64,000 nt of DNA from an uncultured Pseudomonadales bacterium (lineage in GTDB: Bacteria > Pseudomonadota > Gammaproteobacteria > Pseudomonadales > JAHEIH01): contig CAZRAM010000002.1 in the NCBI GenBank assembly GCA_964598145.1, positions 403,795 through 467,794 on the forward strand, read 5' to 3'. Position numbers and translations under genes: made by a program. How positions within the stretch are numbered: the stretch's first letter is position 1; the number at the start of each line of letters is the position of its first letter. Below the pieces are notes generated by a model. That model was not told where the DNA came from, did no database searches, and was given only the letters and a program-made list of their open reading frames with translations. Positions 4,799 through 40,670 of this stretch are shown here, piece after piece.

Positions 4799-5641
4799 AT
4801 GATTAAATGGATGCTCGCGTTGTTGTTGTGTGCCCCAGCTGTTGGTGCGCACGCCCAAATGCGAGTAGCCTCCATCAATATGTGTGCCGACCAGTTATTG
4901 TTGCTGATGGCACCGCGCGAAAACATTGTCTCGCTCTCCTACTTATCCGCCGATCCCCAATACTCCAGTTGGACAGAGCAAGCGAGTAAGTTTCCACTTA
5001 ACCACGCCGGCGCCGAAGAACTTGTCACCCTAGCGCCCGACCTGGTGTTGGCGGGGCAGTACAGTGACCCGATGGTGATTCGTTTATTGCGCCAGCAAGG
5101 TATCGATGTATATCAAATGACGCGCCCCCAGCATTTGGAACAATTGTTCGATGAGGCGCTCGCCGTGGGCAAGTTGTTGGGCCGAGAAGAGGTGGCTAAA
5201 CAGCTTATACAGACTTGGCAGCGCGATATAGCACGCTTACTAGAGCAGGGCAGCGCCCCAGAACAACCGCGCTTGGCGATCGTTGGGCCGAACGGATTTA
5301 CCGAAGGGGCGGGTAGTTTGCGTGACCAAATGCTACAACAAGCGGGCATAATAAATACCGCCGCCGAACTCGGTTTGGTGGGTAATAGTGCCTTTACACT
5401 TGAACAACTGATTACCGCGCGCCCCGATTTGATCGCCCTGGAAGACTCTACGCGTAATGTTAACTCGCTGGCGCAACGCTTGTTGCAACATCCGGCCATT
5501 GGCAACCTTGCTACGATGACGGTAGAGTTACCGGCAAATATGTGGTCGTGCCCCGGCCCGAGTTATGTACAGGCGCTCGGGGCGTTGATCGAAGCCAAAT
5601 TATGGTGGCGTGCAAGACAGGACAACGTGGTTGAACAATAA
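4799..5641 (+). CDS. ABC transporter periplasmic substrate-binding protein, TroA-like class (BtuF/HmuT/FecB type)
   Basis: ORF 4760..5641 trimmed to ATG 4799 (signal peptide MIKWMLALLLCAPAVGAHA), 4 nt after the preceding stop. Overall resemblance to corrinoid/heme/siderophore binding proteins. Followed by a FecCD permease and an ATPase. Confidence 0.75.
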   Translation: MIKWMLALLLCAPAVGAHAQMRVASINMCADQLLLLMAPRENIVSLSYLSADPQYSSWTEQASKFPLNHAGAEELVTLAPDLVLAGQYSDPMVIRLLRQQGIDVYQMTRPQHLEQLFDEALAVGKLLGREEVAKQLIQTWQRDIARLLEQGSAPEQPRLAIVGPNGFTEGAGSLRDQMLQQAGIINTAAELGLVGNSAFTLEQLITARPDLIALEDSTRNVNSLAQRLLQHPAIGNLATMTVELPANMWSCPGPSYVQALGALIEAKLWWRARQDNVVEQ

Positions 5642-6617
5642 ATGGTTTTACAGTGCATGTGCGGTATGGATACTGCTCATGTTATGGCATCTCTCGGTGG
5701 GCAGCAGTCATATCAATCTGTTGGTTGCGCTGCAGGGTGTCTGGTCGGGCGACGATAGTATCGCGGCGACCATTTTGCGCGATATTCGCTTGCCTCGTAT
5801 GGTGTTGGCTATTGCGGTAGGCGCCGTGCTGGGACTCTCTGGGGCGGCTATGCAGAGCTTGTTGCGCAATCCATTGGCGGACCCGGGGCTGGTCGGCGTC
5901 AGTAATTTCGCCGCTTTGGGGGCGGTCATTAGCCTCTATTTTGGTTGGGCGGCGATGGCGTGGTGGGTGCTTCCGGTGGGGGGAATGCTCGGTGCCGCGA
6001 TGGCGGTAGTGGCGATCTTTGCCTTGGCTGGGCTGCAAAGTAACGGCCTAAGTTTGATCTTGGCTGGTGTGGCGGTCAATGCGCTAGCCGGCTCGTTGAT
6101 CGCACTGGCGCTTAACTTTTCCGCTAACCCCTATGCCATGAGTGAGATCGTTTATTGGTTGCTGGGGTCGTTTGCCAATCGCAGTGTGGTTGATGTGACC
6201 ATGGCACTGCCCTTTATGGTGGTGGGTAGCGTAGCCATTTTGATGAGTAAAAATTTTCTCGATGCGCTTAGCCTAGGTGAAGAAACGGCCCAGTCGCTCG
6301 GTTATGATCTACTGCGGCAGCGAACCATGATCATTATCGGTGTGGCGCTCTCGGTCGGCGCGGCGGTCTCGGTGAGCGGTAATATTGGCTTTGTTGGTTT
6401 GGTCATTCCCCATTTAGTGCGCCCAATGGTGCAGCATCGCCCCAGTAAATTATTGTTGGCCAGTGCCTTGGTTGGTTCCGGGTTTATGCTGTTGGCTGAT
6501 ATCTTGGTACAGGTCTTTGCTACTGGTCAGGAGTTAAAGCTTGGGGTGGTGACGGCCTTAGTGGGCGGTCCCTTCTTCCTGTGGTTAATCTGGCGCTTGC
6601 GGAGGTCTTATGTCTAA
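5610..6617 (+). CDS. FecCD/BtuC-family ABC transporter permease
   Basis: Polytopic membrane protein with the family block LRLPRMVLAIAVGAVLGLSGAAMQSLLRNPLADPGLVGVS. The start is uncertain: GTG 5610 overlaps the upstream gene by 32 nt, and TTG 5631 is an alternative. Confidence 0.85.
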   Translation: MQDRTTWLNNKWFYSACAVWILLMLWHLSVGSSHINLLVALQGVWSGDDSIAATILRDIRLPRMVLAIAVGAVLGLSGAAMQSLLRNPLADPGLVGVSNFAALGAVISLYFGWAAMAWWVLPVGGMLGAAMAVVAIFALAGLQSNGLSLILAGVAVNALAGSLIALALNFSANPYAMSEIVYWLLGSFANRSVVDVTMALPFMVVGSVAILMSKNFLDALSLGEETAQSLGYDLLRQRTMIIIGVALSVGAAVSVSGNIGFVGLVIPHLVRPMVQHRPSKLLLASALVGSGFMLLADILVQVFATGQELKLGVVTALVGGPFFLWLIWRLRRSYV

Positions 6618-23568: not shown

Positions 23569-24012
23569 ATGTCGGTGTCAATCATGGGGCGCTGCGACAG
23601 TGTTGAACTTCAGCAGGCGCTCCCCATCCCACTTTATCTTGAACGCGTGTCGGCGGGCTTTCCCTCGCCAGCACAGGACTTTATCGAGAAAACCCTCGAC
23701 CTCAACGAGCTGTGTATCCAGCACCCGGCGGCCACCTTCTTCGTGCGAGTCGAGGGCGAGTCGATGCGCGATGCGGGCATCTACCCCGGCGATGTGTTGG
23801 TGGTCGATCGCAGCTTGCACGCCAGCCATGGCGATATCGTGATCGCGAGCCTCGAAGGGGAAATGACCGTGAAGGAGTTGTGCACGCGGCCGCGTTTGGC
23901 GTTGCGGGCGCACAACCCGGCCTATCCCACCATCGCCATTGCCAACCCGGATGCCTTCGAGGTGTTCGGGGTGGTGACCAACGTGGTGCGGCCGTTGGCA
24001 CGAGGGCGCTGA
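23569..24012 (+). CDS. umuD: translesion-synthesis protein UmuD (S24 LexA-like peptidase)
   Basis: 147 aa with S24 blocks FFVRVEGESMRDAGIYPGDVLVVDR (catalytic Ser) and GEMTVKEL (Lys). A LexA box lies upstream and umuC follows 3 nt downstream. Confidence 0.92.
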   Translation: MSVSIMGRCDSVELQQALPIPLYLERVSAGFPSPAQDFIEKTLDLNELCIQHPAATFFVRVEGESMRDAGIYPGDVLVVDRSLHASHGDIVIASLEGEMTVKELCTRPRLALRAHNPAYPTIAIANPDAFEVFGVVTNVVRPLARGR

Positions 24013-24014
24013 GC

Positions 24015-25277
24015 GTGTACGCGCTGGTTGATTGCAATAATTTTTACGCTGCCTGCGAACGGCTGTTTCGACCCGATCTCAAGCATCGGCCTATCGTGGT
24101 GTTGTCGAACAACGACGGCTGTGTGGTGGCGCGCTCCTACGAAGCCAAGGCGCTAGGAATTAAGATGGGGGTGCCTATCTTTAAGGTGCGAGAAGACATC
24201 CGCCGCCATAACATCATGGTGTTTAGCTCTAACTACACGCTCTACGGCGATATATCGGCGCGGGTGATGTGTACCCTTGAGGCCATGGCGCCGCGGGTGG
24301 AGGTCTACTCCATCGACGAGGCCTTCCTCGACTTGCACGGTGTTAGCCACTGCCGCGACTTGGTTGCCTTCGGCGCCGAGGTACGCGAGCGGGTGTACCG
24401 CGATACCGGTATCCGAGTGTGTGTCGGAATGGGGCCAAGCAAAACCCTCGCTAAGTTAGCCAACTACGCCGCTAAAGCTTATCCGGCGACTCAGGGAGTG
24501 GTCGATCTGAGTGACCTGCAGCGTCGTCGGCGGTTGATGCATATCACCCCGGTAGATGAGGTGTGGGGGGTGGGGCGTCGCTTGGCGGTACGGTTGCGCG
24601 ACATGGGTATCAACACGGCCTTGCAACTGGCGGACTACAACAAAAAGGCGCTACGGCGGCACTTTTCGGTGGTACTCGAACGCACCGCGCGCGAGTTAAA
24701 CGGCGAAGATTGTCTCGATTTTGAGCAGGTGGCTGAACCCAAACAGCAGATCATGTGCAGCCGTTCCTTTGGCGAGCGAATCCACCGCATAGAGCCGATG
24801 CGCGAAGCGGTGGCCAAGTACGTCGCTAACGCCGCCGCCAAATTGCGCGCCGAGCACCAGCGCGCACAAGCCATTAGCCTGTTTATGCGCACCAGTATGT
24901 TTAGCGACCGCGAGCCGCGCTACAGCAATGCGGCGACGGTGAAATTGATGCGCCCGAGCGACGATACGCGAGTACTGATGAAACACGCCCAAGCGCTGGT
25001 AGGCCAGTTGTGGCGGGACGGTTTTGCCTATGCCAAGGCGGGGGTGTTGTTGGGTGACTTCTACCCGCGCTATGTGTGGCAGCCCAGCCTACTCGATTTG
25101 CTCGAGGTCGATCCGCGCGCCGATAAGTTGATGGCAACGATGGATGCGATCAACGCCAAACAGCGTGGAGCGGTGTTTTGGGCGCGGCAGAACAACGGCA
25201 CGCAGTGGCGTATGAAACAGGAGTTTCTATCGCCGGCCTATACCACCGACTGGCAGCAACTGCCGCGGGTGCGGTAG
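24015..25277 (+). CDS. umuC: DNA polymerase V catalytic subunit UmuC (Y-family)
   Basis: ORF-track ORF 23712..25277 trimmed to GTG 24015, giving (M)YALVDCNNFYAACERLFRPDL, which parallels the E. coli UmuC N-terminus. 420 aa, about the UmuC length. Confidence 0.9.
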   Translation: MYALVDCNNFYAACERLFRPDLKHRPIVVLSNNDGCVVARSYEAKALGIKMGVPIFKVREDIRRHNIMVFSSNYTLYGDISARVMCTLEAMAPRVEVYSIDEAFLDLHGVSHCRDLVAFGAEVRERVYRDTGIRVCVGMGPSKTLAKLANYAAKAYPATQGVVDLSDLQRRRRLMHITPVDEVWGVGRRLAVRLRDMGINTALQLADYNKKALRRHFSVVLERTARELNGEDCLDFEQVAEPKQQIMCSRSFGERIHRIEPMREAVAKYVANAAAKLRAEHQRAQAISLFMRTSMFSDREPRYSNAATVKLMRPSDDTRVLMKHAQALVGQLWRDGFAYAKAGVLLGDFYPRYVWQPSLLDLLEVDPRADKLMATMDAINAKQRGAVFWARQNNGTQWRMKQEFLSPAYTTDWQQLPRVR

Positions 25278-26228: not shown

Positions 26229-28457
26229 GTGGGGCAAGACTTCAATAATATAAAACGTTCGACCAAAAGCATCTTTGTGGTGTTGGCTTTGCTGTTGGCC
26301 ATCATGTTGGGCATCGAATGGCAGCAGGTTAATCACCGCGTGAGCTTCGTAAATAGCGAACAGTCCGGCTTGGCGTTACTAGAGCCGACAACGCAGTTGT
26401 TGGTGGCAATGGGTGAATATCGCGGTGTCTGCAGCGCGCAGCTTGCCGGTGATAGCAGCTTTGTAAACCAGTGTCAGCAGCGCCAGCAGACCGTTGAGAA
26501 GTACTTGAGCGCCCTTGAAGAGTCGGATCTAGCGCCTTTCCGTGCCGATGCTGAATGGCGTCGTCTGCAAATGCTGTGGAATCTGCAAATACAGGAGCGC
26601 GAAACGCTCAACGCTAATGGGCTGTTCGAAGAACTCACCCGTGGTATCAACTTGCTCATGGCGATCAACCAAAAAATCTATGCCTTTTCAAATTTGAAAC
26701 TCGACGACGAATTGCTGCCCTATAACTACGCAAAGTTACGTGCCGTGGCGATCCCAGAGTTACAAGAGTCGCTGGGTCAGATGCGTGGTCGCGGCACCAG
26801 TATTATGGTGCGAGGTAGCCTCGATAGCGAACAGAACAACGCGTTGATTCGCGGCCAAGCGATGATCGTTAACCAATTGAACGCGTTGTTGGATATGCGC
26901 CAAGAACTGACCGTGAGTGGTGACATCCCCAGCGATATTCAATTGGCCTTAACCAAGGCGATCGAGCAGATTCAGTACTTTTTGGAGATTAACGTTGACG
27001 TATTGTCGCGCCAAGATCGCTTAAGTAGCGATGGCGCCGAGCTCTTTTTTAGCGCGGGTACCCAGCCTATTTTACTGCTGCAGTCGCTGTCGCAACGGGT
27101 GCACGGTGAGTTGGAATCGATACTGCAACAGCGTCAAAACCGCGGCTATGTGATGCTGATGTTTCTCACGTTTTGTGTGGTGGTGATTTGCGGTGTGATG
27201 TGGTTTTTGTATCGACGCACCACTATGGCGATTGAGGCGATGGAAGAAAGCGAAATGCGCTATCGCGATGCCAGCGATGCTAAAACTCAGTTTCTGTCGA
27301 ACATGAGCCACGAATTGCGCACGCCATTGAACGGTATCTACGGCGTGTTGCAGATTTTGGATGGCGATAAGGATCAGCCTCGGCACTTACATAAATTGAC
27401 CCGCATCGCCCTCGAGTCGACCGAAATGTTAACCTCGTTGATCGGCAATATCCTCGATTTGGCCAAGATTGAGCGCCGCGAGGTAAACCTAGATCCCGAA
27501 CCCTTCATGATCAACGACATGTTGGAGACTTATTTACCTACCTTCCGTACTCTAGCGGATAAAAATGATACCGAGTTCAACTTTGTGATCGACCCGGATT
27601 GTCACCTGTATTGGCAGGGCGACAAGTTACGCATCATGCAAATCATTAACAATGTCGTGGGTAACGCCATCAAATTTTCGCCCAAGGCCAGTGTGACCTT
27701 TGGCGCCTCTTCGCACGACAACATGCTGCGCTTTGAGGTCCGCGATACCGGGATTGGTATGGATCAGAAGACCATCGATACCCTGTTCGACCGGTTTAGC
27801 CAAGGGGATAAAAGTCGCACCCGCGAGTTTCAGGGCAGCGGCCTCGGTATGGCGATCTGTAAAGAACTGTTGGATATGATGGGCGGCACCATCGAAGTAC
27901 ACAGCGAAGTTGGCCAGGGCAGTGAGTTCATCATCGAATTGCCACTGGAACCGCTCAGTATGCCGGTACAGCCCGAGGTAGCCATTCTACAGGCCATGGC
28001 AGACTTGGATGAAGAAGATTTACACGAGGCACAAGATTGGCGTGAGAGCCATGTGCTATTGGTTGACGATGCCATGACCAACCTGTTTGTGTTGGAAGCG
28101 ATGATGGCCACTATGGTGAAGCAAGTCAGTATTGCCAGCAGCGGTTTCGAGGCCTTAGAAATCATCAACCACACCCATGTCGACATGTTAGTGAGCGATA
28201 TCAGTATGCCGGGCATGGACGGTATGCAGCTACTCAAGCGTGTGAGGGCTTATCAGCCGCATATTCCCGCGGTGGCCTTGTCAGGTAACGTGTTGAAGGA
28301 AGATATTTTGGCCTACCGCAAAGCCGGCTTTGATGAGGTGCTGTCAAAGCCTGTGCAGAAGCGAGATCTACAGGCTGCCATGGAGAAGTCTTTCATTCTT
28401 CGCCAGGCCGAGCGCAACGGCGATATACCCGCTTCGGATAACCTCACCGTTCACTAG
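26229..28457 (+). CDS. hybrid sensor histidine kinase/response regulator
   Basis: 742 aa. Two TM segments flank an extracytoplasmic helical domain of about 270 aa. H-box SHELRTPLNG (His codon 27309-27311), G1 DTGIGM, G2 GSGLGMAI and a C-terminal receiver (VLLVDDAMTN...DMLVSDISMPGMDG...SKP). The GTG start is uncertain. Confidence 0.9.
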   Translation: MGQDFNNIKRSTKSIFVVLALLLAIMLGIEWQQVNHRVSFVNSEQSGLALLEPTTQLLVAMGEYRGVCSAQLAGDSSFVNQCQQRQQTVEKYLSALEESDLAPFRADAEWRRLQMLWNLQIQERETLNANGLFEELTRGINLLMAINQKIYAFSNLKLDDELLPYNYAKLRAVAIPELQESLGQMRGRGTSIMVRGSLDSEQNNALIRGQAMIVNQLNALLDMRQELTVSGDIPSDIQLALTKAIEQIQYFLEINVDVLSRQDRLSSDGAELFFSAGTQPILLLQSLSQRVHGELESILQQRQNRGYVMLMFLTFCVVVICGVMWFLYRRTTMAIEAMEESEMRYRDASDAKTQFLSNMSHELRTPLNGIYGVLQILDGDKDQPRHLHKLTRIALESTEMLTSLIGNILDLAKIERREVNLDPEPFMINDMLETYLPTFRTLADKNDTEFNFVIDPDCHLYWQGDKLRIMQIINNVVGNAIKFSPKASVTFGASSHDNMLRFEVRDTGIGMDQKTIDTLFDRFSQGDKSRTREFQGSGLGMAICKELLDMMGGTIEVHSEVGQGSEFIIELPLEPLSMPVQPEVAILQAMADLDEEDLHEAQDWRESHVLLVDDAMTNLFVLEAMMATMVKQVSIASSGFEALEIINHTHVDMLVSDISMPGMDGMQLLKRVRAYQPHIPAVALSGNVLKEDILAYRKAGFDEVLSKPVQKRDLQAAMEKSFILRQAERNGDIPASDNLTVH

Positions 28458-32385: not shown

Positions 32386-33450
32386 TTACTCGAAGAGGGA
32401 TAGCTGTAAATCACTATCCGCAGGATCATCTGCCAAGCGCACACCCAAACCAAGCAATCTAACAGGCAAGGCCTTGCGCGCCAATGCTTCTTGCATCAAT
32501 AGCCGATAGTCTTCTTCGCTGGGGCGGCTGCCCGCTCGCTCCACCGTGGTGCTGGTGAAGTCGGAAAACTTCACTTTTACAAAGGCACCCTTAATACCGT
32601 ATTCATCTTTCAGGCGATCAAGGCGGCGTTGAAGGTCCTGCATTAACTCCGGGATCTTGGCTTCACAGGCTGGGCCATTGGCTAAGTCTTCAGCATAGGT
32701 GTGCTCGCAACTCACGCTCTTTCTCACCCGTTCAGTATTCACCGGGCGATGGTCGATACCGTGGGCGTAGTCGAATAGGCGCTGGGCGAAATCCCCAAAA
32801 TGCTGTTGTAGAAGCTCTAAGCCGGCGCTGCGGACATCCATGCAGGTCTGAATACCGAGGTCGTGTAACTTTTGGGCGGTAACCTTACCCACGCCGTGGA
32901 TTTTGGCTACCGGAAGTTGCAGCACGAATTGTTCGACCTGATCGGGGCGAATGACGCAGATACCATTCGGCTTGTTCCAATCGCTGGCGATCTTGGCCAG
33001 AAACTTGGAATTACTCACCCCTGCCGAAACGGTAATATCCAGTGCAGCCTCGATGCGGGCGCGGATAGCTTCAGCGATGAGCGTGGCGCTGCCGTTGTGC
33101 TGCTGGCACTCACTGACGTCGAGGTAGGCTTCATCTAACGACAGGGGCTCAATCAGGTCGGTATAGTCGGCAAATATCTCACGCATGACCAACGACGCCT
33201 CGCGATAGGCCTCAAATCTTGGCTTGACCAAAATGAGTTGCGGGCACTTGCGCTTGGCAATTGCGCTAGACATGGCGCTGCGTACGCCAAAGGCGCGCGC
33301 CTCATAGTTGCAAGTGGCGATCACTCCGCGGCGATCACTACTGCCACCCACAGCCATAGGGATACCCTTCAAACTAGGGTTGTCGCGCATCTCAATGGCG
33401 GCAAAAAAACAGTCGGCGTCGATATGGATAATCTTTCGATGTGCTGTCAC
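32386..33450 (-). CDS. dinB: DNA polymerase IV (Y-family)
   Basis: 354 aa. RKIIHIDADCFFAAIEMRDNPSLKGIPMAVGG and SLDEAYLDV are typical DinB blocks. Confidence 0.95.
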   Translation of the reverse strand: MTAHRKIIHIDADCFFAAIEMRDNPSLKGIPMAVGGSSDRRGVIATCNYEARAFGVRSAMSSAIAKRKCPQLILVKPRFEAYREASLVMREIFADYTDLIEPLSLDEAYLDVSECQQHNGSATLIAEAIRARIEAALDITVSAGVSNSKFLAKIASDWNKPNGICVIRPDQVEQFVLQLPVAKIHGVGKVTAQKLHDLGIQTCMDVRSAGLELLQQHFGDFAQRLFDYAHGIDHRPVNTERVRKSVSCEHTYAEDLANGPACEAKIPELMQDLQRRLDRLKDEYGIKGAFVKVKFSDFTSTTVERAGSRPSEEDYRLLMQEALARKALPVRLLGLGVRLADDPADSDLQLSLFE

Positions 33451-33531: not shown

Positions 33532-36500
33532 ATGACCACGCGCGCTTATCCGACATATTATCTCGAAACGATTAGCTCTGAACAAAGTGCTGAAGCTTTC
33601 GCTGATCATATTTTGTCCCTACGCAGTTATCTGGTCCGAATTATGGTGACTTTTACCCTGTTTGTGACAGCATGGCGGATAAATAGTGGCTTAGCTCCCT
33701 ATGCAGCCACGATGGCCACATCCTGGTTCATTAATGTTTCTGCCGTAACGTGTCTTTTTGCTTCTTTTAGCTGGCCTTTTGGTCATCCCATGAAAAATCT
33801 ATACGTTCGCTATGGGTTTTGTCTGCTCTGGTTAGTTGCCTCCTTGATGTTAATAAGCAGTGCTGGCTATGCGCCGCTATGGACTTTTTGCGCGATTTTG
33901 TGTTGCCTAATTATTGTTGGTGATGACCCCGATCACCACCAAGCATGGCGACGCTGGTTTGGAACCTTACTCGCATTTGTTGCCATCATAATTGCTTTTG
34001 TCATCCTGGCGAACGATTGGCCAGTAGATAATCCAAAGATCTTTAACCGTTGGCAAATCGCTTTTGCGGCAATTGTTGCGGTGATCTCATACGCTTGGCA
34101 TGGCATTTTTTCAAATCAAAAGTTGCTACATAATGCCGCTGACCAATCGGCCCAATGGCATCAAATGGTGCTGAGGCTGAGAAAGCATTATGCGGCCTTC
34201 GATCCACTCTTTTTGATCTTGGTAGTTACTGTCCTCGTTTTCTCACTTTCTATCAGTTCACTCATTACGTCTCCTGAGCAATCGATTTTTGTCACCATGC
34301 TAACTCAACACAAGCCGTTTAGTGTGTTGCTCTTGGTTGTGTTTGTGGCAATATTCATAGCGGCGACACGAGAGCATTGGATGAAGGCAATTTCACCATG
34401 GGTGTTTGCGGCAAGCTTCGGCCTTGCTGGTTTTATGATTTTCAACGTTGGGGTAAATCAAAATGCAGGCAACTTCTTTGCTCCTATGGGATTTTTATAT
34501 TTCCTACAGCCAAACGCCTCCCGCCAGCGCTGGTTGGTGCCTGGGCTCTACGCGTGTTTGTTATTAGTCGCGCAGAGCAAACAATTTGATGAGTATTCCC
34601 TAGAGTTTTTGTTGATTTGCTGGAGCAGTTTTTTTGCCTTTGGCGCTGTTTTCGATCAGCTGAGAATGCAACACCTCAAGCAGCTAGCGGTGTTAGAACA
34701 CTTGGATGAAGGCGTCGACGATGCATCCATTCCGGCTGCTGACGTTGATAAGATTGATCAATGGATTTTGTCAAACAAGTGGCTTGGTATTACGTCGCTT
34801 GCGTGTGTCATCATCGCCTTTGCTATGTACAGCTCCCAGCAATCGCTTATCAATACCGAGATCGATGGGTTGCATGGGCTTGTTGAAAAAGAATTGGACT
34901 ATGAAATTCGCCGCCAAACCATGCAGTTAAATTTTTTGGCGAAAGATGATGACAACGATATGTTTGACGCGTTGACTCGCCAATCAGTGTGGTGTGCAGT
35001 TTGGCGGTCATCTGAGCCTTCGGGGGTGCCAGCAGTAAGCAATTGCCCATTGGATATTGTGTGGCTGCGACAATTGTTTGATGGTGATTTAAGCACTACA
35101 TTGCCGATTTTTTTTGTTAAGGACCATCGAGTCTATATGGTGCTGCGTTCAGACCTCGATGATGCCTTATCAGTCTATGGTGTGCTCGATGTGGCGGTTT
35201 GGATAAAAGCTGCTTTACACGTCTCTCTTTTTAATCGTCCTTTTCAAAAGCAATTACTGTTTGACGATGCCATATCCGATCTTCGCTGGTCGATAGATAT
35301 AGAAACCTTGCAATTGTCATCCCTTGCGCCGTCAGTTAATTTGGATTCCTCTTGGTCGGTGCAAATACGGCCAAGCGATGAAATCAGTTCTAACTTTTGG
35401 CTTGAAACGGGGCGTTTGCTGATTATTTTTTGTTTCTTCATTGCCGGCCTACGCCATTTTTATGTAAGTCGTTACAATGTTACGCGCCTGTCCACTGATG
35501 TTGCCCAGCAAGGGCGTCAGTTGGAAGAAAATAACCGACTTAGACAAGAAATCGCCGACGCACTCTACCGCGCTGAAGAGGCCAATAAGTCTAAGGATAA
35601 TTTTCTTGGCATGATCGGGCATGAAATTCGCACCCCTCTGAATAGTGTGATGGGTATGCTGCAAGCGTTGAACTTGAAACCCTTGTCCGAGGACGCTAAA
35701 CACTTAGTTAAAAATGCCTACAGTGCCTCCACAATGTTGCTCAATCTGGTCAATGACGTACTCGATTACAATAAAATGAAGTCGGGCACACTGACACTGG
35801 CTAAGCATACTTTTGCTCTGGGGCCTTTAATTGATTTGTATCATCAGCAGTACGCGACGGCGGCATCGCAAAAAGGCCTTAATTTTAAGTGTGACATCAT
35901 AGGTGATAGAGATGTTTTCGTACTAGGCGATGATATTCGGCTGGGTCAGGTACTGACCAATTTGCTGTCAAATGCCGTCAAGTTTACTGAGAGCGGTGGC
36001 ATTTTCCTGCATGTTGAAATCACTGTAGACGGCGATGACGTAACGTGTTTATTTAAAGTTATGGATACTGGTATCGGTATCGATCAGAAGTTCCTTCCCC
36101 TGGTGTTTGAACCGTTTAAACAATACGACATGAGCATGAAGCGTGAGTACCGCGGTTCAGGGCTAGGTTTGTCCATTGTTAAACATCTTGCAGAAATGAT
36201 GCATGGACACGTTGATGTGTTCTCGAGGGTGGGGCGAGGCAGTACGTTTGTCTTCAGGGTGACACTGGCGCGAGCGTTGGAACAGCCTTCTATCGCTTCC
36301 GCAAACGAGTTGGACGTTCAAGTCCCAAAAGCCATCTATAAGGGCAAGCGTATTTTGGTGGTCGATGATGATCCTCTTAACCTTGAGGTTATTAAGGAGT
36401 TATTAGAGCCATTTGGGGTGACGGTGGATTGTGCTCAAAACTCCCGCCAGTCGTTAGCTTTTGTTAAGCAACACGCGAGTGATTACCAATTTGTATTGAT

Positions 36501-36705
36501 GGACCACCAGATGCCCGATATGACTGGCTTGGAACAAACCTATCGCCTGAGAGAGACCTACGACAGCAATACGTTACCGATCATTTTGCTGACCGCTGAC
36601 TTGTCGGAAAAAGTCTTGGATCTAGCGGAAAAGGCGGGTACTAACGAGTCGGTATCCAAGCCCATCACCTTGTCTAATCTACGTCGCTTACTAGATACCT
36701 ATTAA
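33532..36705 (+). CDS. large polytopic hybrid sensor histidine kinase/response regulator
   Basis: 1057 aa. About 10 hydrophobic helices occupy the first ~400 aa, and a further ~190-aa segment is bracketed by two helices. H-box GHEIRTPLNSV (His codon 35620-35622), N box LLSNAVKFT, G1 DTGIGI, G2 GSGLGLSI and a receiver (ILVVDDDPLN...FVLMDHQMPDMTG...SKP). Confidence 0.85.
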   Translation: MTTRAYPTYYLETISSEQSAEAFADHILSLRSYLVRIMVTFTLFVTAWRINSGLAPYAATMATSWFINVSAVTCLFASFSWPFGHPMKNLYVRYGFCLLWLVASLMLISSAGYAPLWTFCAILCCLIIVGDDPDHHQAWRRWFGTLLAFVAIIIAFVILANDWPVDNPKIFNRWQIAFAAIVAVISYAWHGIFSNQKLLHNAADQSAQWHQMVLRLRKHYAAFDPLFLILVVTVLVFSLSISSLITSPEQSIFVTMLTQHKPFSVLLLVVFVAIFIAATREHWMKAISPWVFAASFGLAGFMIFNVGVNQNAGNFFAPMGFLYFLQPNASRQRWLVPGLYACLLLVAQSKQFDEYSLEFLLICWSSFFAFGAVFDQLRMQHLKQLAVLEHLDEGVDDASIPAADVDKIDQWILSNKWLGITSLACVIIAFAMYSSQQSLINTEIDGLHGLVEKELDYEIRRQTMQLNFLAKDDDNDMFDALTRQSVWCAVWRSSEPSGVPAVSNCPLDIVWLRQLFDGDLSTTLPIFFVKDHRVYMVLRSDLDDALSVYGVLDVAVWIKAALHVSLFNRPFQKQLLFDDAISDLRWSIDIETLQLSSLAPSVNLDSSWSVQIRPSDEISSNFWLETGRLLIIFCFFIAGLRHFYVSRYNVTRLSTDVAQQGRQLEENNRLRQEIADALYRAEEANKSKDNFLGMIGHEIRTPLNSVMGMLQALNLKPLSEDAKHLVKNAYSASTMLLNLVNDVLDYNKMKSGTLTLAKHTFALGPLIDLYHQQYATAASQKGLNFKCDIIGDRDVFVLGDDIRLGQVLTNLLSNAVKFTESGGIFLHVEITVDGDDVTCLFKVMDTGIGIDQKFLPLVFEPFKQYDMSMKREYRGSGLGLSIVKHLAEMMHGHVDVFSRVGRGSTFVFRVTLARALEQPSIASANELDVQVPKAIYKGKRILVVDDDPLNLEVIKELLEPFGVTVDCAQNSRQSLAFVKQHASDYQFVLMDHQMPDMTGLEQTYRLRETYDSNTLPIILLTADLSEKVLDLAEKAGTNESVSKPITLSNLRRLLDTY

Positions 36706-36708
36706 GGG

Positions 36709-37062
36709 TTATTTACTCGCCGCCAGCAGCGATTCAAATGCACCGCCGTTGGTGACCGCGGTGTACCCCGCGTTTTGCAAGGTGGCGGTGGCTTGCCCGG
36801 AGCGGTTGCCGCTGCGGCAATACAACACCATCGGCGTGTCTTTGGGGATACCCAAGGCTTTTACGCCCTCTAAAATGTTGCTGTGGGTGATGCGCGTTGA
36901 GCCTTCGAGATGGCCCTCGCGGTACTCGGCCTCGCTGCGGACATCGATTAACATGGCGCCATCGGCGACCTTTTGCAGCGCTGCAATATGACTATCGTTA
37001 AAACTTTTGCCGCAACCGAACAGGCTCATCATCATAACACCTACCAAGGCTAGTCGTTTCAT
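36709..37062 (-). CDS. rhodanese-domain protein, probable periplasmic lipoprotein (PspE-like sulfurtransferase)
   Basis: ORF trimmed to ATG 37062 (MKRLALVGVMMMSLFGC, lipobox-like), with GGAG upstream. Single rhodanese domain with the active-site loop CRSGNRS. Confidence 0.8.
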   Translation of the reverse strand: MKRLALVGVMMMSLFGCGKSFNDSHIAALQKVADGAMLIDVRSEAEYREGHLEGSTRITHSNILEGVKALGIPKDTPMVLYCRSGNRSGQATATLQNAGYTAVTNGGAFESLLAASK

Positions 37063-37144
37063 CGGATCTCCGTGAGTATTTTTTTGTTGTGAGTTCATTG
37101 TACACTCAGCATGAAGATTAATCTTTGCTAATACAGGTCAATTT

Positions 37145-37573
37145 ATGTTTTTTGTTTCCGCGGCGTTGATCGGCATCATCGCTGTCATTCCCGCCATCAT
37201 GTGGGCGCGTCACCAACGCACTGCAGTGCTGGTAAAAGTCGCTGGATGGGGATTGATTGCCGCGGCATCTATCTATGTCATCGCGGCCTTGGGTCGTGCC
37301 GACGGGTTGTGGAAAATCATCGAGTTGATGGGGGTGGGGGCTTTTGGTTGTTGTTATTGGCTCGCCAAAAAACGTCCGCTGTGGGCATTGGCCTGGGGTT
37401 GGGGTTTGCATCCCCTGTGGGATATTTTTCTGCACTACCTTGGCCCCGGTAGCTACATCATACCGGCCTGGTACAGCATCGCTTGCGCGGTGTTTGACGT
37501 GGTCGTGGCAGCGTATTTATTTTGGCGCGACTATCAACAGCGTCACCCCGTCGAAATCGTGCGCCTTTGGTAA
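37145..37573 (+). CDS. hypothetical 4-TM membrane protein
   Basis: 142 aa with four clear hydrophobic helices and a Trp-rich loop (LWALAWGWGLHPLWD). No family recognised. The 3' end overlaps the convergent DUF2063 gene by 31 nt. Confidence 0.5.
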   Translation: MFFVSAALIGIIAVIPAIMWARHQRTAVLVKVAGWGLIAAASIYVIAALGRADGLWKIIELMGVGAFGCCYWLAKKRPLWALAWGWGLHPLWDIFLHYLGPGSYIIPAWYSIACAVFDVVVAAYLFWRDYQQRHPVEIVRLW

Positions 37574-38298
37574 CCCAACACGATCTGATCTTTGTGTAGT
37601 TGTGCCAAAATACTTTCAACGTGGGGCCAAAGACTGGCGGCATCGGTATTGGGTAAGCGCTCACAAAGTGATTGGCAGGCGGCTGCCACCGACGGGTTGC
37701 GTTGAAGATCTTGCAAGAGTTGTAAGGTGGTGGCATTGATTGCATTGAAAGCCACCTCGTGTGAGGCTTTGCGATACACCGCAACACCAAACCATTCTCC
37801 TGTCGTTGCTGGAATGTCTGCACCGGGGCTGAACTGGTGCACAGGTCTAGGGTAGAGCCCAAAGTGCACCGTGGGGTTCAAAATCACGTCAATTTGATCT
37901 TGGTCCTGTTCGTCTAGCGGCTCGCTTTCACGTAAAACCACCTCGCCGGTATGTTGATAGGCCGCCAACTCCAGCCATTCGTAGTGCATTAAATCGTGCA
38001 ACCATTCAGGGACATCATCGCGCTCTGCTATCCAGTCTAGAAAGATCTCAGGAATGTCTTTAAACAGCGGCGAGTGGTGTTCTCCCGCGGCAAAAAATGC
38101 CCTACACAGGGTATTCCATTTCTCTTCACCGAGAATGGCTGACGCTATTGGAAAGCACTGGTCGATGAAACTAGTCAGGTTGTTGTATACCAGGCGGCGA
38201 TACACTTGGAAACGTGATTCGGCCACGCCATGTGGCGCCTCGCTGTTGTTTCTTAGCGCGGCGGCGATGTCGCGCTGATAGTCAGTTAAATGAGTCAT
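37543..38298 (-). CDS. DUF2063-family protein (BufC/HvfC-type RiPP maturation partner)
   Basis: 251 aa. The N-terminal pattern (QRDIAAALRN...RFQVYRRLVYNNLTSFIDQCFP) recalls DUF2063. Its ATG overlaps the DUF692 stop (ATGA at 38295-38298). Confidence 0.75.
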   Translation of the reverse strand: MTHLTDYQRDIAAALRNNSEAPHGVAESRFQVYRRLVYNNLTSFIDQCFPIASAILGEEKWNTLCRAFFAAGEHHSPLFKDIPEIFLDWIAERDDVPEWLHDLMHYEWLELAAYQHTGEVVLRESEPLDEQDQDQIDVILNPTVHFGLYPRPVHQFSPGADIPATTGEWFGVAVYRKASHEVAFNAINATTLQLLQDLQRNPSVAAACQSLCERLPNTDAASLWPHVESILAQLHKDQIVLGYQRRTISTG

Positions 38299-39140
38299 GG
38301 TGCCAGCTTGGCTGTCTTTGCCGTGACCTGCTGCTGCAGATGCTTGATGTATTGAATCTCGGGCAGTAATTCAGCCAGCGGTGGAATGTTAAAGTCTCGC
38401 TCCAAGAGTGTGGGGAAGATACCAAACTGCTGGTAGCTGAAGTCGAGAAGTCGCCATACCTCATCAACCACCTCGGCGCCATGGGTGTCGATGACTAAAT
38501 CCTCTGCCTCACGGAAGTGACCAGCGGTATGCATGTAGACTATCCGTTCAGTGGGTAATGCTTGTAAGTACTGGTAGGGATCAAAGCCAAAGTTCACGCT
38601 GTTAACGAAAACGTTATTGATATCGAGGTGTAAGTCACAGTCGGCGGTTTCAAGAACTGCGCGAATAAAGCTCGCTTCATCCATGCTGGAGTGGGGGGCG
38701 GCCATGTAAAACGACGTGTTTTCCAAGGCGATGCGCCGTCCAAGGATGTGTTGCACACGTTGCACTCGCTGGGCGACATGTTCCACCGCCTGCTCGGTAA
38801 AGGGCAGCGGCAATAAGTCGTATAGGTGGCCGTTAGCGCTACACCAAGACAGGTGCTCACTGTAAAGGGCGATGTGGTGTTTATCTAAAAAGCGAGCGAT
38901 ATCTTCAGCGAAGGCTTCATCGAGCGGATCACTACTGCCAATCGATAGTGACAAGCCATGGGCGACAAAGGGGCGTTGTTGCAGTAGCGCGTGTAGTTGC
39001 TGTCGCTTGCGGCCGCCGTGCGCCATCCAATTTTCAGGGGCAATTTCTAAAAAGTCGATGGCGTCCGGGACGCCATCGTCGATGAGGGTGGCGAGGTGCT
39101 CCTGACGAAGTCCCAAGCCACTGCCCATTGGGTAGGTCAT
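38295..39140 (-). CDS. DUF692-family multinuclear non-heme iron oxidase (MNIO; MbnB/BufB/HvfB-like RiPP maturase)
   Basis: 281 aa. The blocks GLGLRQEHL...DFLEIAPENW...HGLSLSIGS...YSEHLSW...ALENTSFY...HLDINNVFVNSVNFG...YMHTAGH are the TIM-barrel DUF692 pattern. It starts 3 nt after the precursor stop. Confidence 0.88.
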   Translation of the reverse strand: MTYPMGSGLGLRQEHLATLIDDGVPDAIDFLEIAPENWMAHGGRKRQQLHALLQQRPFVAHGLSLSIGSSDPLDEAFAEDIARFLDKHHIALYSEHLSWCSANGHLYDLLPLPFTEQAVEHVAQRVQRVQHILGRRIALENTSFYMAAPHSSMDEASFIRAVLETADCDLHLDINNVFVNSVNFGFDPYQYLQALPTERIVYMHTAGHFREAEDLVIDTHGAEVVDEVWRLLDFSYQQFGIFPTLLERDFNIPPLAELLPEIQYIKHLQQQVTAKTAKLAP

Positions 39141-39143
39141 GGT

Positions 39144-39533
39144 TTAACCCATGCCGCCGCACTTACCTTCACCGCATTTGCCGTCTTTGGCTTTCTTGGA
39201 GTCTTTTGCACCGCACTTGCCATCGTTGCCCTTCATCGAGCCGCCGCACGAGCCGTCATGGGCTTTATCGTGGCCTTTGTGGTTACCGTGGTCATGGTTG
39301 TGATCATGGTTCATATCATGGCCATCTTTCTTGTCTTTGGCGCCCCCGCACATGCCCTCACCACATTTGCCGTCTTTGGCTTTGGGCTTGTCTTTGTCGC
39401 CGTGGTGCATGGCGACTTGATAGCCCTGTTCCATACTGGTGGCACTGAACGGACTGGTGTCAGCGCTGACGTGCATGGCGGTATTGCCCATGGCAGCAGC
39501 GATGGCGATACTGAGTGTCATTGATTTTTTCAT
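39144..39533 (-). CDS. secreted Cys/His/Lys/Gly-rich precursor peptide (HvfA/bufferin-type RiPP metallophore candidate)
   Basis: Start taken at the second ATG (39533), 7 nt after GGAG; ATG 39539 is the alternative. Sec signal MKKSMTLSIAIAAAMGNTAMHVSA. The core has six G-x-C-G sites, including two DGKCGEG(K/M)CGG blocks, and a 22-aa tract with 8 His. Confidence 0.8.
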   Translation of the reverse strand: MKKSMTLSIAIAAAMGNTAMHVSADTSPFSATSMEQGYQVAMHHGDKDKPKAKDGKCGEGMCGGAKDKKDGHDMNHDHNHDHGNHKGHDKAHDGSCGGSMKGNDGKCGAKDSKKAKDGKCGEGKCGGMG

Positions 39534-39658
39534 CGTCATTCTCCGTGATTTGATGTCAAAATATTATAGAACATTGCACAGATGCATATATCTCTTTGGA
39601 TTTTCTATAGTCCAGTCATGGGCCTACGGCGTAAAAAAATAAAAATACAAGGTGCGCT

Positions 39659-39973
39659 ATGGCGAGTAAACTTCTATACGACGATTTATTAAAAAAGGGC
39701 TCGGTACCCCGCATGGTGGTGGAGTCTTACGATTTGTGTCTCTACCAGTGCTTTGCTGACCTCGGGGAGGGCGAGCGGCTGGTATGGCAAACGCCTACTA
39801 AGACGCTGACCACCCACAACCTCACCGCGATGCGCGAAAAACTCGCCAAATTGAAACCCGCCGAGGTGTTTCTGCGTCAGTCGAGTGCCTTCGATGAGAT
39901 GATCGGGCAGCCGAACAAGACAGACAGCAATGCCTTGCTGCTTCCGCTATCGTTGGACTCTATTTTTTTCTAA
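39659..39973 (+). CDS. hypothetical protein (104 aa)
   Basis: Single clean ORF divergent from the precursor gene. No recognisable motif. Confidence 0.45.
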   Translation: MASKLLYDDLLKKGSVPRMVVESYDLCLYQCFADLGEGERLVWQTPTKTLTTHNLTAMREKLAKLKPAEVFLRQSSAFDEMIGQPNKTDSNALLLPLSLDSIFF

Positions 39974-40670
39974 CAGGACGGCGCGCAACTAATGTTTGGT
40001 ACAGCAGCATCACACCGGTCAACGTGAATAGCAAAGCACTGGCGGCAAAGGCAACGAGCAACGGGTGATTGAAATCATCGCGTTCATCGTAATCCATGAT
40101 GTGCAGCATCCAGACAAAATCGAAGAGCCGCCATATATCGCTGCGCACCCGTTGCAGTTCTCCACTGATGGGATGCAGGTAAAACGAGGTGTTGTCCTTG
40201 TCCGCAAAATCTACCCGCCACATGGGGGGACGCAATGGTCTGGCCTCCATGGGAAGTTCCTGTAATAACTCGGCGCTTGTAATGTCGGCTGTTTGAGTAA
40301 ACAAGCTGCGTGCAGTATCTGTGATGTATTGCTTATCCAAGGCGGGCATTGGCTGGCCGCTAACAGCGGAAAAGTAGCTCACCTGATCAGTGACTATCTT
40401 GTACACCGGTTCGTTACCCACGCTAATAAAGGCGACCTGCTTGGCGTTTAGCCCGTGCTCGACGAGTAACGCATTGAGTGGGTAGCGATAATCGGCTATG
40501 GCTAATTGCAGTGACTGGGGGTGGCGCAAGTGATCGCCGTGCACTTCGTCGATATCGAGGCTGGCCATGATGGTGCCGCCGCCAATCCAAAAGAGCAACT
40601 GCAGGCTCAACGCTAGGCCTGCCCATTTGTGCAGCCAGCGGTTCCATCGGTAGTAGGTTATCCAGTTCAT
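39960..40670 (-). CDS. PepSY-associated TM-helix protein
   Basis: 236 aa. The N-terminal YRWNRWLHKWAGLALSLQLLFWIGGG and a C-terminal TM helix bracketing a periplasmic domain are typical of PepSY-TM proteins. Confidence 0.65.
   Translation of the reverse strand: MNWITYYRWNRWLHKWAGLALSLQLLFWIGGGTIMASLDIDEVHGDHLRHPQSLQLAIADYRYPLNALLVEHGLNAKQVAFISVGNEPVYKIVTDQVSYFSAVSGQPMPALDKQYITDTARSLFTQTADITSAELLQELPMEARPLRPPMWRVDFADKDNTSFYLHPISGELQRVRSDIWRLFDFVWMLHIMDYDERDDFNHPLLVAFAASALLFTLTGVMLLYQTLVARRPVRKK

Follow-up and report, generated by a model that had tools for sequence, protein, structure and literature searches.

In nontypeable Haemophilus influenzae, the HvfABC proteins modify six cysteines of a Sec-exported, Cu(I)-binding peptide, and the fourth gene of the operon encodes HvfX, a DoxX homologue that the authors deem non-biosynthetic (PMC11252979). 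A survey of genomes turned up about 2,000 precursors of this "Buf_EGKCG/oxazolin" kind, mostly in Pseudomonadota, in clusters that combine genes for the ribosomally synthesized and post-translationally modified peptide (RiPP), a multinuclear non-heme iron oxidative enzyme (MNIO), a DUF2063 protein and DoxX "in various combinations" (PMC12452194). The Mitchell group has counted more than 24,000 MNIO-PME1 loci, proposed the class name captophorins, and found seven 5-thiooxazoles in the product of the fon cluster, which can bind as many as four Cu (PMC12668002). The same work revised the heterocycle of the H. influenzae product, oxazolin, from an oxazolone/thioamide to a 5-thiooxazole (PMC12668002), and the Rosenzweig group, too, now attributes 5-thiooxazoles to oxazolin, and their formation to an HvfB that is a mixed-valent di-iron enzyme and depends on HvfC (10.64898/2026.07.17.739211). 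Here we describe a locus of this class in a 64-kb stretch of contig CAZRAM010000002.1 from an uncultured Pseudomonadales bacterium (hereafter the window, to whose full length all coordinates refer). We consider it, with a probability of roughly 0.8, to be a functional minimal HvfABC-type cluster of the captophorin class, belonging to the EGKCG or Lys-Cys group that is also called Buf_EGKCG/oxazolin; this reading draws on gene and motif content and on analogy with the characterised members.

The open reading frames (ORFs) of the locus lie head to tail on the minus strand: an hvfA-family precursor gene (39144..39533), hvfB, which encodes an MNIO of the HvfB family (38295..39140), and hvfC, which encodes a DUF2063/PME1 partner with a C-terminal NGO1945_C domain of the RiPP recognition element (RRE) type (37543..38298). 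Only ACC separates the precursor stop codon, TAA at 39146-39144, from the MNIO start codon at 39140, a gap of 3 nt, and the MNIO stop and DUF2063 start share the ATGA at 38298-38295, an overlap of 4 nt. Both junctions are kept in the related loci L001 and L002. An earlier note on this DNA, written from the letters alone, had described just this packing and had read the genes as a precursor with a Sec-type signal peptide and six Cys, each in a G-x-C-G context, an MNIO and a DUF2063 protein of the BufC/HvfC partner type. That description stands: the arrangement, the six cysteines and the signal-peptide features are all present, Pfam and NCBIfam matches identify the three genes, and all three proteins score above the cut-off of a curated NCBIfam profile. 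The E-values (1.3e-120 for the HvfB family, 3.1e-61 for HvfC and 9.2e-9 for the HvfA-family domain) place the locus far beyond chance.

The enzyme scores 347.6 bits on Pfam PF05114 (MbnB_TglH_ChrH) and 401.9 bits on the NCBIfam HvfB-family model NF003818 (cut-off 360), while falling short of the BufB model (284.8 bits, cut-off 310) and far short of the MbnB equivalog TIGR04159 (44.4 bits, cut-off 325). The partner scores 82.1 bits on DUF2063, 52.4 bits on NGO1945_C and 207.2 bits on the NCBIfam HvfC model NF050145 (cut-off 142). The closest solved structures are PDB 3BWW for the enzyme (E = 3.5e-71) and PDB 3DEE for the partner (E = 1.5e-11), the two structures that the literature assigns to the MNIO/PME1 class (PMC12668002). 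The window enzyme is 58% identical to FonB of Fontimonas thermophila (locus L072), and in an alignment of 81 homologues its D249-F250 pair falls on the Asp249-Phe250 pair that is catalytic in FonB. In the same alignment, H61, H96, E140, D173, N176, H204, H208, D218, H220 and E247 are among the positions conserved in 97% or more of the sequences, and by analogy with the structures of MbnB and HvfB the His, Asp and Glu residues among these are expected to bind iron.

The longest ORF of the precursor gene runs from 39144 to 39539, and translation most likely begins at its second ATG (39533), for a product of 129 amino acids. This choice follows from the Shine-Dalgarno sequence GGAG at 39541..39544 (minus strand), which lies 7 nt upstream of the ATG at 39533 and only 1 nt upstream of that at 39539, from the lack of the upstream ATG in the relative L002, from the gene calls on public contigs, which give 129 amino acids, and from the homologue P0001, which begins MKKSMTL. 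The block CACGGAGAA around the Shine-Dalgarno sequence is conserved in L001 and L002. The protein opens with a predicted Sec signal peptide, MKKSMTLSIAIAAAMGNTAMHVSA (39462..39533, minus strand), recognised by eye from two Lys (KK), a hydrophobic core LSIAIAAAMG and the VSA, preceding D, after which cleavage is predicted; in other members of the family, Sec signal peptides are cleaved by signal peptidase I (PMC11252979, PMC12452194). Next comes a conserved N-terminal region, DTSPFSATSMEQGYQVAMHHGDK (39393..39461, minus strand), with the family-wide PF...GY motif; the form PF-x(5-10)-GY was found in all 120 of the 120 best homologues, and it is possible that this region docks HvfC.

The six cysteines follow, all on the minus strand, in two double and two single motifs: a first double motif DGKCGEGMCGG with Cys57 and Cys62 of the 129-residue protein (39342..39374), a single motif DGSCGG with Cys96 (39240..39257), a second single motif DGKCGA with Cys107 (39207..39224), and a second double motif DGKCGEGKCGG with Cys120 and Cys125 (39153..39185). 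Their contexts in order are DGKCG, EGMCG, DGSCG, DGKCG, DGKCG and EGKCG, and their spacings are 5, 34, 11, 13 and 5. The NCBIfam HvfA-family domain NF050137 (KCGExKCG_twice) matches the second double motif, its best stretch being residues 106-129 of the 131-residue ORF, and the precursor scores 34.8 bits on it (cut-off 19.5). On the H. influenzae HvfA equivalog NF050188 it scores 42.2 bits, below the cut-off of 95, which excludes orthology to H. influenzae HvfA and leaves family membership untouched. The characterised FonA behaves in the same manner (63.2 bits on NF050137, above the cut-off, and 51.4 bits on NF050188, below it), so that the window peptide is a family member at the level of a characterised one. 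No Pfam family matched the precursor, which has no DUF2282 domain; 482 homologous proteins were found at E<=1e-3. It also lacks the regular repeats of 17 residues, each holding a pair of EGKCG motifs, that define "type 1" Buf_EGKCG/oxazolin precursors, repeats that are predicted to form a beta-helix (PMC12452194). On the strand opposite the precursor gene lies an ORF of 142 residues (39096-39524, plus strand), which is of low complexity, mirrors the repeats of the coding sequence and almost certainly does not represent a gene.

The operon is intact and under strong purifying selection. Between the window and L001, a metagenome-assembled genome of Cellvibrionales Ww495 whose enzyme is 86% identical to the window HvfB, the ratio of nonsynonymous to synonymous substitution rates (dN/dS) is 0.064 for hvfA, 0.081 for hvfB and 0.096 for hvfC, and 12 or more contigs, from several samples, carry the same locus.

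The likely course of events can be outlined by homology to HvfABC, FonABC and NgoABC, the window itself contributing only the identities of the genes. The precursor would be translated with its Sec signal peptide, and in the cytoplasm a heterodimer of HvfB, a TIM-barrel iron enzyme, and HvfC, the RRE-containing partner, would take four electrons from each x-C-G cysteine with the help of O2 and a mixed-valent di-iron site. Each site would yield a 5-thiooxazole, with a loss of 4 Da, up to 24 Da for six sites, and an absorbance maximum near 305 nm. Sec would then export the modified peptide and signal peptidase would remove the first 24 residues, leaving a mature peptide of 105 residues and about 10.9 kDa before modification. 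In the periplasm the thiooxazoles would bind Cu(I), roughly one Cu for every two heterocycles, and so sequester excess copper. The earlier note had likewise proposed a Sec-exported, Cys-modified, copper-binding peptide and had predicted a loss of 4 Da per cysteine; homology supports the former, and the latter would remain correct under the revised 5-thiooxazole chemistry.

How far the six cysteines suit the enzymes can be judged from work on FonBC, which needs a small residue after the Cys, processes a DGKCG variant fully and tolerates Ala, Arg or Thr before the Cys (PMC12668002). All six cysteines of the window peptide precede Gly and so agree with the first of these requirements, and the Ser before Cys96 is inferred to be tolerated. 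Several observations nevertheless count against the reading as a functional copper-sequestering captophorin cluster. Bulky Phe or acidic Glu before the Cys impairs FonBC (PMC12668002), and fewer than six sites may be modified, since Cys62 (Met-Cys-Gly) and Cys96 (Ser-Cys-Gly) stand outside the contexts tested in the literature. The window HvfB has Gln13 where FonB has Arg16. No copper-homeostasis genes and no copper-responsive regulator were found within the window, and no conserved operator was found upstream of hvfA, where an alignment of the window with L001 and L002 retains only the ribosome-binding block and the start codon. Lastly, the role of the class, whether detoxification or acquisition, is unsettled even for its characterised members (PMC11252979).

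What does set the precursor apart is the stretch between its first and second Cys motifs. Typical family precursors consist of regular KAKDGKCGEGKCG repeats and have a median of 3 His, whereas here the linker HDMNHDHNHDHGNHKGHDKAH (39258..39320, minus strand) holds 9 His in 21 residues. The earlier note had thought the design of the precursor unusual, and for this linker that is indeed the case. At least 7 His occur in only 5 of the 120 best homologue hits, namely the five closest clusters. The linker is common only to these five closest metagenomic relatives and is not described in the searchable literature: the terms "His-rich" and "histidine" are absent from the MNIO landscape paper, and "histidine-rich" is absent from the captophorin papers found. 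A 12-bp tandem duplication inside the linker (39288-39321, period 12, 2-2.5 copies), which encodes HD/HN units, points to slippage as its probable origin. In the strain variants L081-L084 (7608-7997), which have identical HvfB and two precursor alleles, the differences are confined to the signal peptide and the N-terminal region, and linker and Cys motifs are invariant.

The members of the His-rich clade form a series in which the Cys count drops as the His count rises, from 6 Cys and 7 His (P0002 and P0003) through 6 Cys and 11 His (the window and P0001) and 5 Cys and 10 His (P0004) to 4 Cys and 17-18 His (L002 and P0005). The linker of P0002 and P0003 is about 11 residues shorter than that of the window. 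The L002 precursor (5554-5997), which is near P0005, has 4 Cys, 17 His and repeated MDHSHGQG units and is followed by intact hvfB and hvfC. We see in these units a likeness to the copper-binding Met/His octapeptides of Pseudomonas CopA, for which a literature search gave no confirmation. Outside the clade, an otherwise typical EGKCG precursor of Pseudoalteromonas luteoviolacea (L062, 5368-5847) has a linker rich in His and Lys, KGEHKGHEKGKHKGEEKG, following the first of its double motifs; it is positioned like the window linker and appears to have arisen independently.

These observations bear on the first of the alternatives, in which the His-rich linker would make the peptide a broader periplasmic metal buffer, for Cu(II), Zn, Ni and Co, with imidazoles as important as the thiooxazoles and progressively replacing them in the sister lineage. 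We regard this as possible, though less probable than not. The density of His in an invariant linker, the shift from cysteine to histidine among the relatives and the independent His/Lys-rich linker at the same position in L062 all favour it. Against this, His-rich low-complexity linkers can arise by slippage, of which the tandem duplication is a sign, the linker may be a neutral spacer, and the Cys motifs and the enzymes are still under strong constraint. Our own view is that the linker could equip the peptide with imidazole sites of the classical kind, suited for instance to Cu(II), Zn or Ni. More tentatively, the clade could represent a small undescribed captophorin sub-type in which 5-thiooxazoles would bind Cu(I) while encoded His clusters, or Met/His clusters in the sister lineage, would bind Cu(II) or other metals; on present evidence this is a conjecture that we would not favour over its negation.

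A second alternative keeps the biosynthesis and changes the purpose, making the peptide a copper scavenger, or chalkophore, instead of a buffer or detoxifier. This idea was raised explicitly for oxazolin (PMC11252979), and it could draw on the lack of copper-efflux genes nearby and on the disappearance from the window lineage of a stress-type module of extracytoplasmic function (ECF) sigma factor and anti-sigma factor, described below. The characterised 5-thiooxazole pathways, however, are induced by excess metal and not by starvation, and bufferins improve growth under copper stress (PMC12452194, PMC12668002). In addition, no dedicated uptake receptor adjoins the operon; the only TonB-dependent receptor-like ORF in the window lies 18 kb away. 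Taken together, we find a scavenging role unlikely, and copper sequestration by an HvfABC-type product remains the preferred interpretation.

The absence of a DoxX gene was the feature that had led the earlier note to propose an undescribed variant system. The absence itself is real: a profile hidden Markov model (HMM) of DoxX, made with 24 such proteins from related loci, found nothing better than E = 0.52 in the whole window. It is no novelty, though. In a survey of the best 80 related loci, limited to one genome per species, 79 had a recognisable hvfC, and a DoxX gene lay directly downstream of it in 24, leaving 55 of the 79 without one in that position. The three-gene layout without DoxX is moreover that of the characterised "minimal" fonABC cluster (PMC12668002), and the precursor matches the curated HvfA-family domain with a score pattern like that of FonA, so the claim of an undescribed system does not hold.

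The relatives do suggest that a DoxX gene was once close by. In L001 and L087/L088, a divergent hvfX (DoxX), an ECF sigma factor gene and a small anti-sigma-like gene lie between the DUF6482 gene and hvfA; the upstream DoxX protein scores 226 bits on the NCBIfam HvfX-family model, and the anti-sigma-like ORF, with an HxxxCxxC motif, scores 49.3 bits on its model, against a cut-off of 50. This module occupies 4127-5617 in L001 and 4481-5998 in L087. By blastn breakpoints, the 1491-bp module of L001 is replaced in the window by a lineage-specific segment of 71 bp (39557..39627, minus strand), and homology with the relatives resumes 23 nt before the hvfA start, covering the last codons of the anti-sigma ORF. 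This remnant of coding sequence suggests that the hvfX/ECF-sigma/anti-sigma module was deleted in the window lineage, the alternative being a gain in the L001/L087 lineage. The same slot holds a TRAP transporter and TauE in L002 and a TauE fragment in L086, none of which is present in the window.

If the module was lost, the operon would have to be expressed by other means. A perfect TATAAT lies at 39568-39563, inside the 71-bp segment, and no -35 element was found near it, either by scan or by eye. A scan for sigma-70 promoters and terminators across 36.6-40.8 kb called neither a promoter upstream of hvfA nor a terminator behind hvfC, its counts being at the level of shuffled sequence. Given the loss of the module, the operon is probably expressed from a different promoter than that of its relatives, one that includes the TATAAT at 39568-39563. 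The replacement of a 1.5-kb module of L001 and L087 by a 71-bp segment, together with the empty promoter scan, could also be taken as signs of a remnant operon, silent or in decay. We think this very improbable: three intact ORFs at dN/dS of 0.06-0.10, conserved key residues, the recurrence of the module-less layout in several samples, the perfect TATAAT upstream and a characterised fon cluster that works without the module genes all argue for a functional cluster.

Least probable of all is a modification of the methanobactin kind, an oxazolone/thioamide pair, which was the original assignment for HvfA (PMC11252979), was followed by the earlier note and survives in the names of the NCBIfam models, but which is incompatible with alkylation-assisted heteronuclear multiple bond correlation (HMBC) spectra of fontiphorin, oxazolin and gonophorin (PMC12668002), has been given up for 5-thiooxazoles by the group that proposed it (10.64898/2026.07.17.739211) and is hard to square with the distance of the window HvfB from MbnB.

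The surroundings of the operon are best understood as synteny by descent, with no functional evidence attached to any neighbour, since the genes in question are restricted to the closest relatives. A gene for a multi-pass membrane protein of 142 residues with a weak match to DUF6010 (26.7 bits, cut-off 27.3) runs towards hvfC (37145-37573, plus strand) and shares 31 bp with its 3' end; it is conserved in L001, L002 and L086 at a dN/dS of 0.05. The possibility that this gene is a disguised DoxX was rejected, as an hhalign comparison with a 24-member DoxX alignment gave a probability of 0.3% and a Pfam search at E<=10 also returned no match of the DoxX type. Downstream of hvfC on the same strand lies a gene for a small rhodanese-domain protein with a lipoprotein-like N-terminus (LFGC; 36709-37098, minus strand). 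In Mycobacterium tuberculosis, DoxX has been reported to work with the rhodanese-type protein SseA; among the 80 loci, no wider association of rhodanese and hvf genes was seen beyond the closest relatives. Divergent from hvfA is a DUF6482 gene (39659-39973, plus strand) conserved in all of the closest relatives, and converging with it over a 14-bp overlap is a gene for a PepSY_TM-like membrane protein (39960-40670, minus strand), which is present in L002, L086 and L087 and was not detected in L001. A hybrid histidine kinase of 1057 residues accompanies hvfABC in the closest relatives. The rhodanese, DUF6010-like, DUF6482 and PepSY_TM-like genes were considered as general hvf partners and set aside, as among the 80 loci only the three or four closest relatives have them.

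Further out, the flanks encode ordinary chromosomal functions, among them a GntP permease, an asparaginase, an M20 peptidase, an aminotransferase, DinB, an alpha-amylase, DnaK/DnaJ/GrpE, Fur, RecN, glycerol genes, PNPase and GH31. The window contains two Y-family DNA polymerase genes (about 23569-25277, plus strand, and 32386-33450, minus strand), one paired with a Peptidase_S24 gene in a umuDC-like arrangement and the other stand-alone and dinB-like, as well as two hybrid histidine kinases, at 26229-28457 and 33532-36705.

The system is thus one that has already been described, curated and characterised, its DoxX-less form included, and the biochemical reading of the earlier note was essentially right apart from the outdated heterocycle. 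With the window, a class of more than 24,000 known MNIO-PME1 loci gains a further environmental member, found in a Cellvibrionales-like gammaproteobacterium, and no new question is opened; the only points of interest are the rare His-rich linker and the apparent loss of the regulatory and HvfX module. Comparing module-bearing relatives with the module-less window strain could reveal what the module contributes, and if the module was indeed shed, that strain could show, as an experiment of nature, whether such a cluster can do without HvfX and dedicated regulation. The His-rich and Met/His-rich precursors could in turn show how enzyme-made thiooxazoles are traded off against side-chain ligands in periplasmic metal buffering; should the peptides prove to carry both kinds of ligand, the clade would form a natural series in which encoded ligands replace enzyme-made ones.

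Among the described systems, methanobactin (MbnABC) is like the window in that an MNIO acts on Cys of a ribosomal copper-binding peptide, a likeness that for the window is drawn by analogy. It has an MbnC partner and a leader peptide where the window has an HvfC partner and a predicted Sec signal, and its oxazolone/thioamide product and function in copper acquisition are unlike those proposed for the window system. Bufferins (BufA1/DUF2282, or BufA2 with BufBCD) have the enzyme superfamily, the PME1 partner and Sec-signal precursors in common with the window (PMC11626156, PMC12452194), and their 5-thiooxazole product and periplasmic copper buffering would be further points of likeness; they differ in that the window precursor has no DUF2282 domain and the window enzyme stays below the BufB cut-off.

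The H. influenzae hvfABCX operon stands closer, for its HvfB and HvfC families are those of the window and its HvfA, Sec-exported and Cu(I)-binding, has six modified Cys where the window precursor likewise has six Cys (PMC11252979; 10.64898/2026.07.17.739211). In contrast, the N-terminal disulfide pair of that HvfA, C38/C43, is absent from the window precursor, and its hvfX gene has no counterpart in the window. Among characterised clusters, the fonABC cluster of F. thermophila, which makes fontiphorin of the captophorin class (PMC12668002), consists like the window locus of a precursor, an MNIO and a DUF2063/PME1 protein without DoxX, and its precursor shares the signal peptide, the [E/D]GKCG motifs and the pattern of NCBIfam scores. 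FonA differs in its seven regular EGKCG-type sites and 1-2 His, where the window peptide has six irregularly spaced sites and a 9-His linker. The metagenomic relatives L001, L087/L088, L086 and L002 combine hvfABC, with gaps as in the window, with precursors that carry His-rich linkers, and they share with it the DUF6010-like, rhodanese and hybrid kinase genes downstream and the DUF6482 gene upstream.

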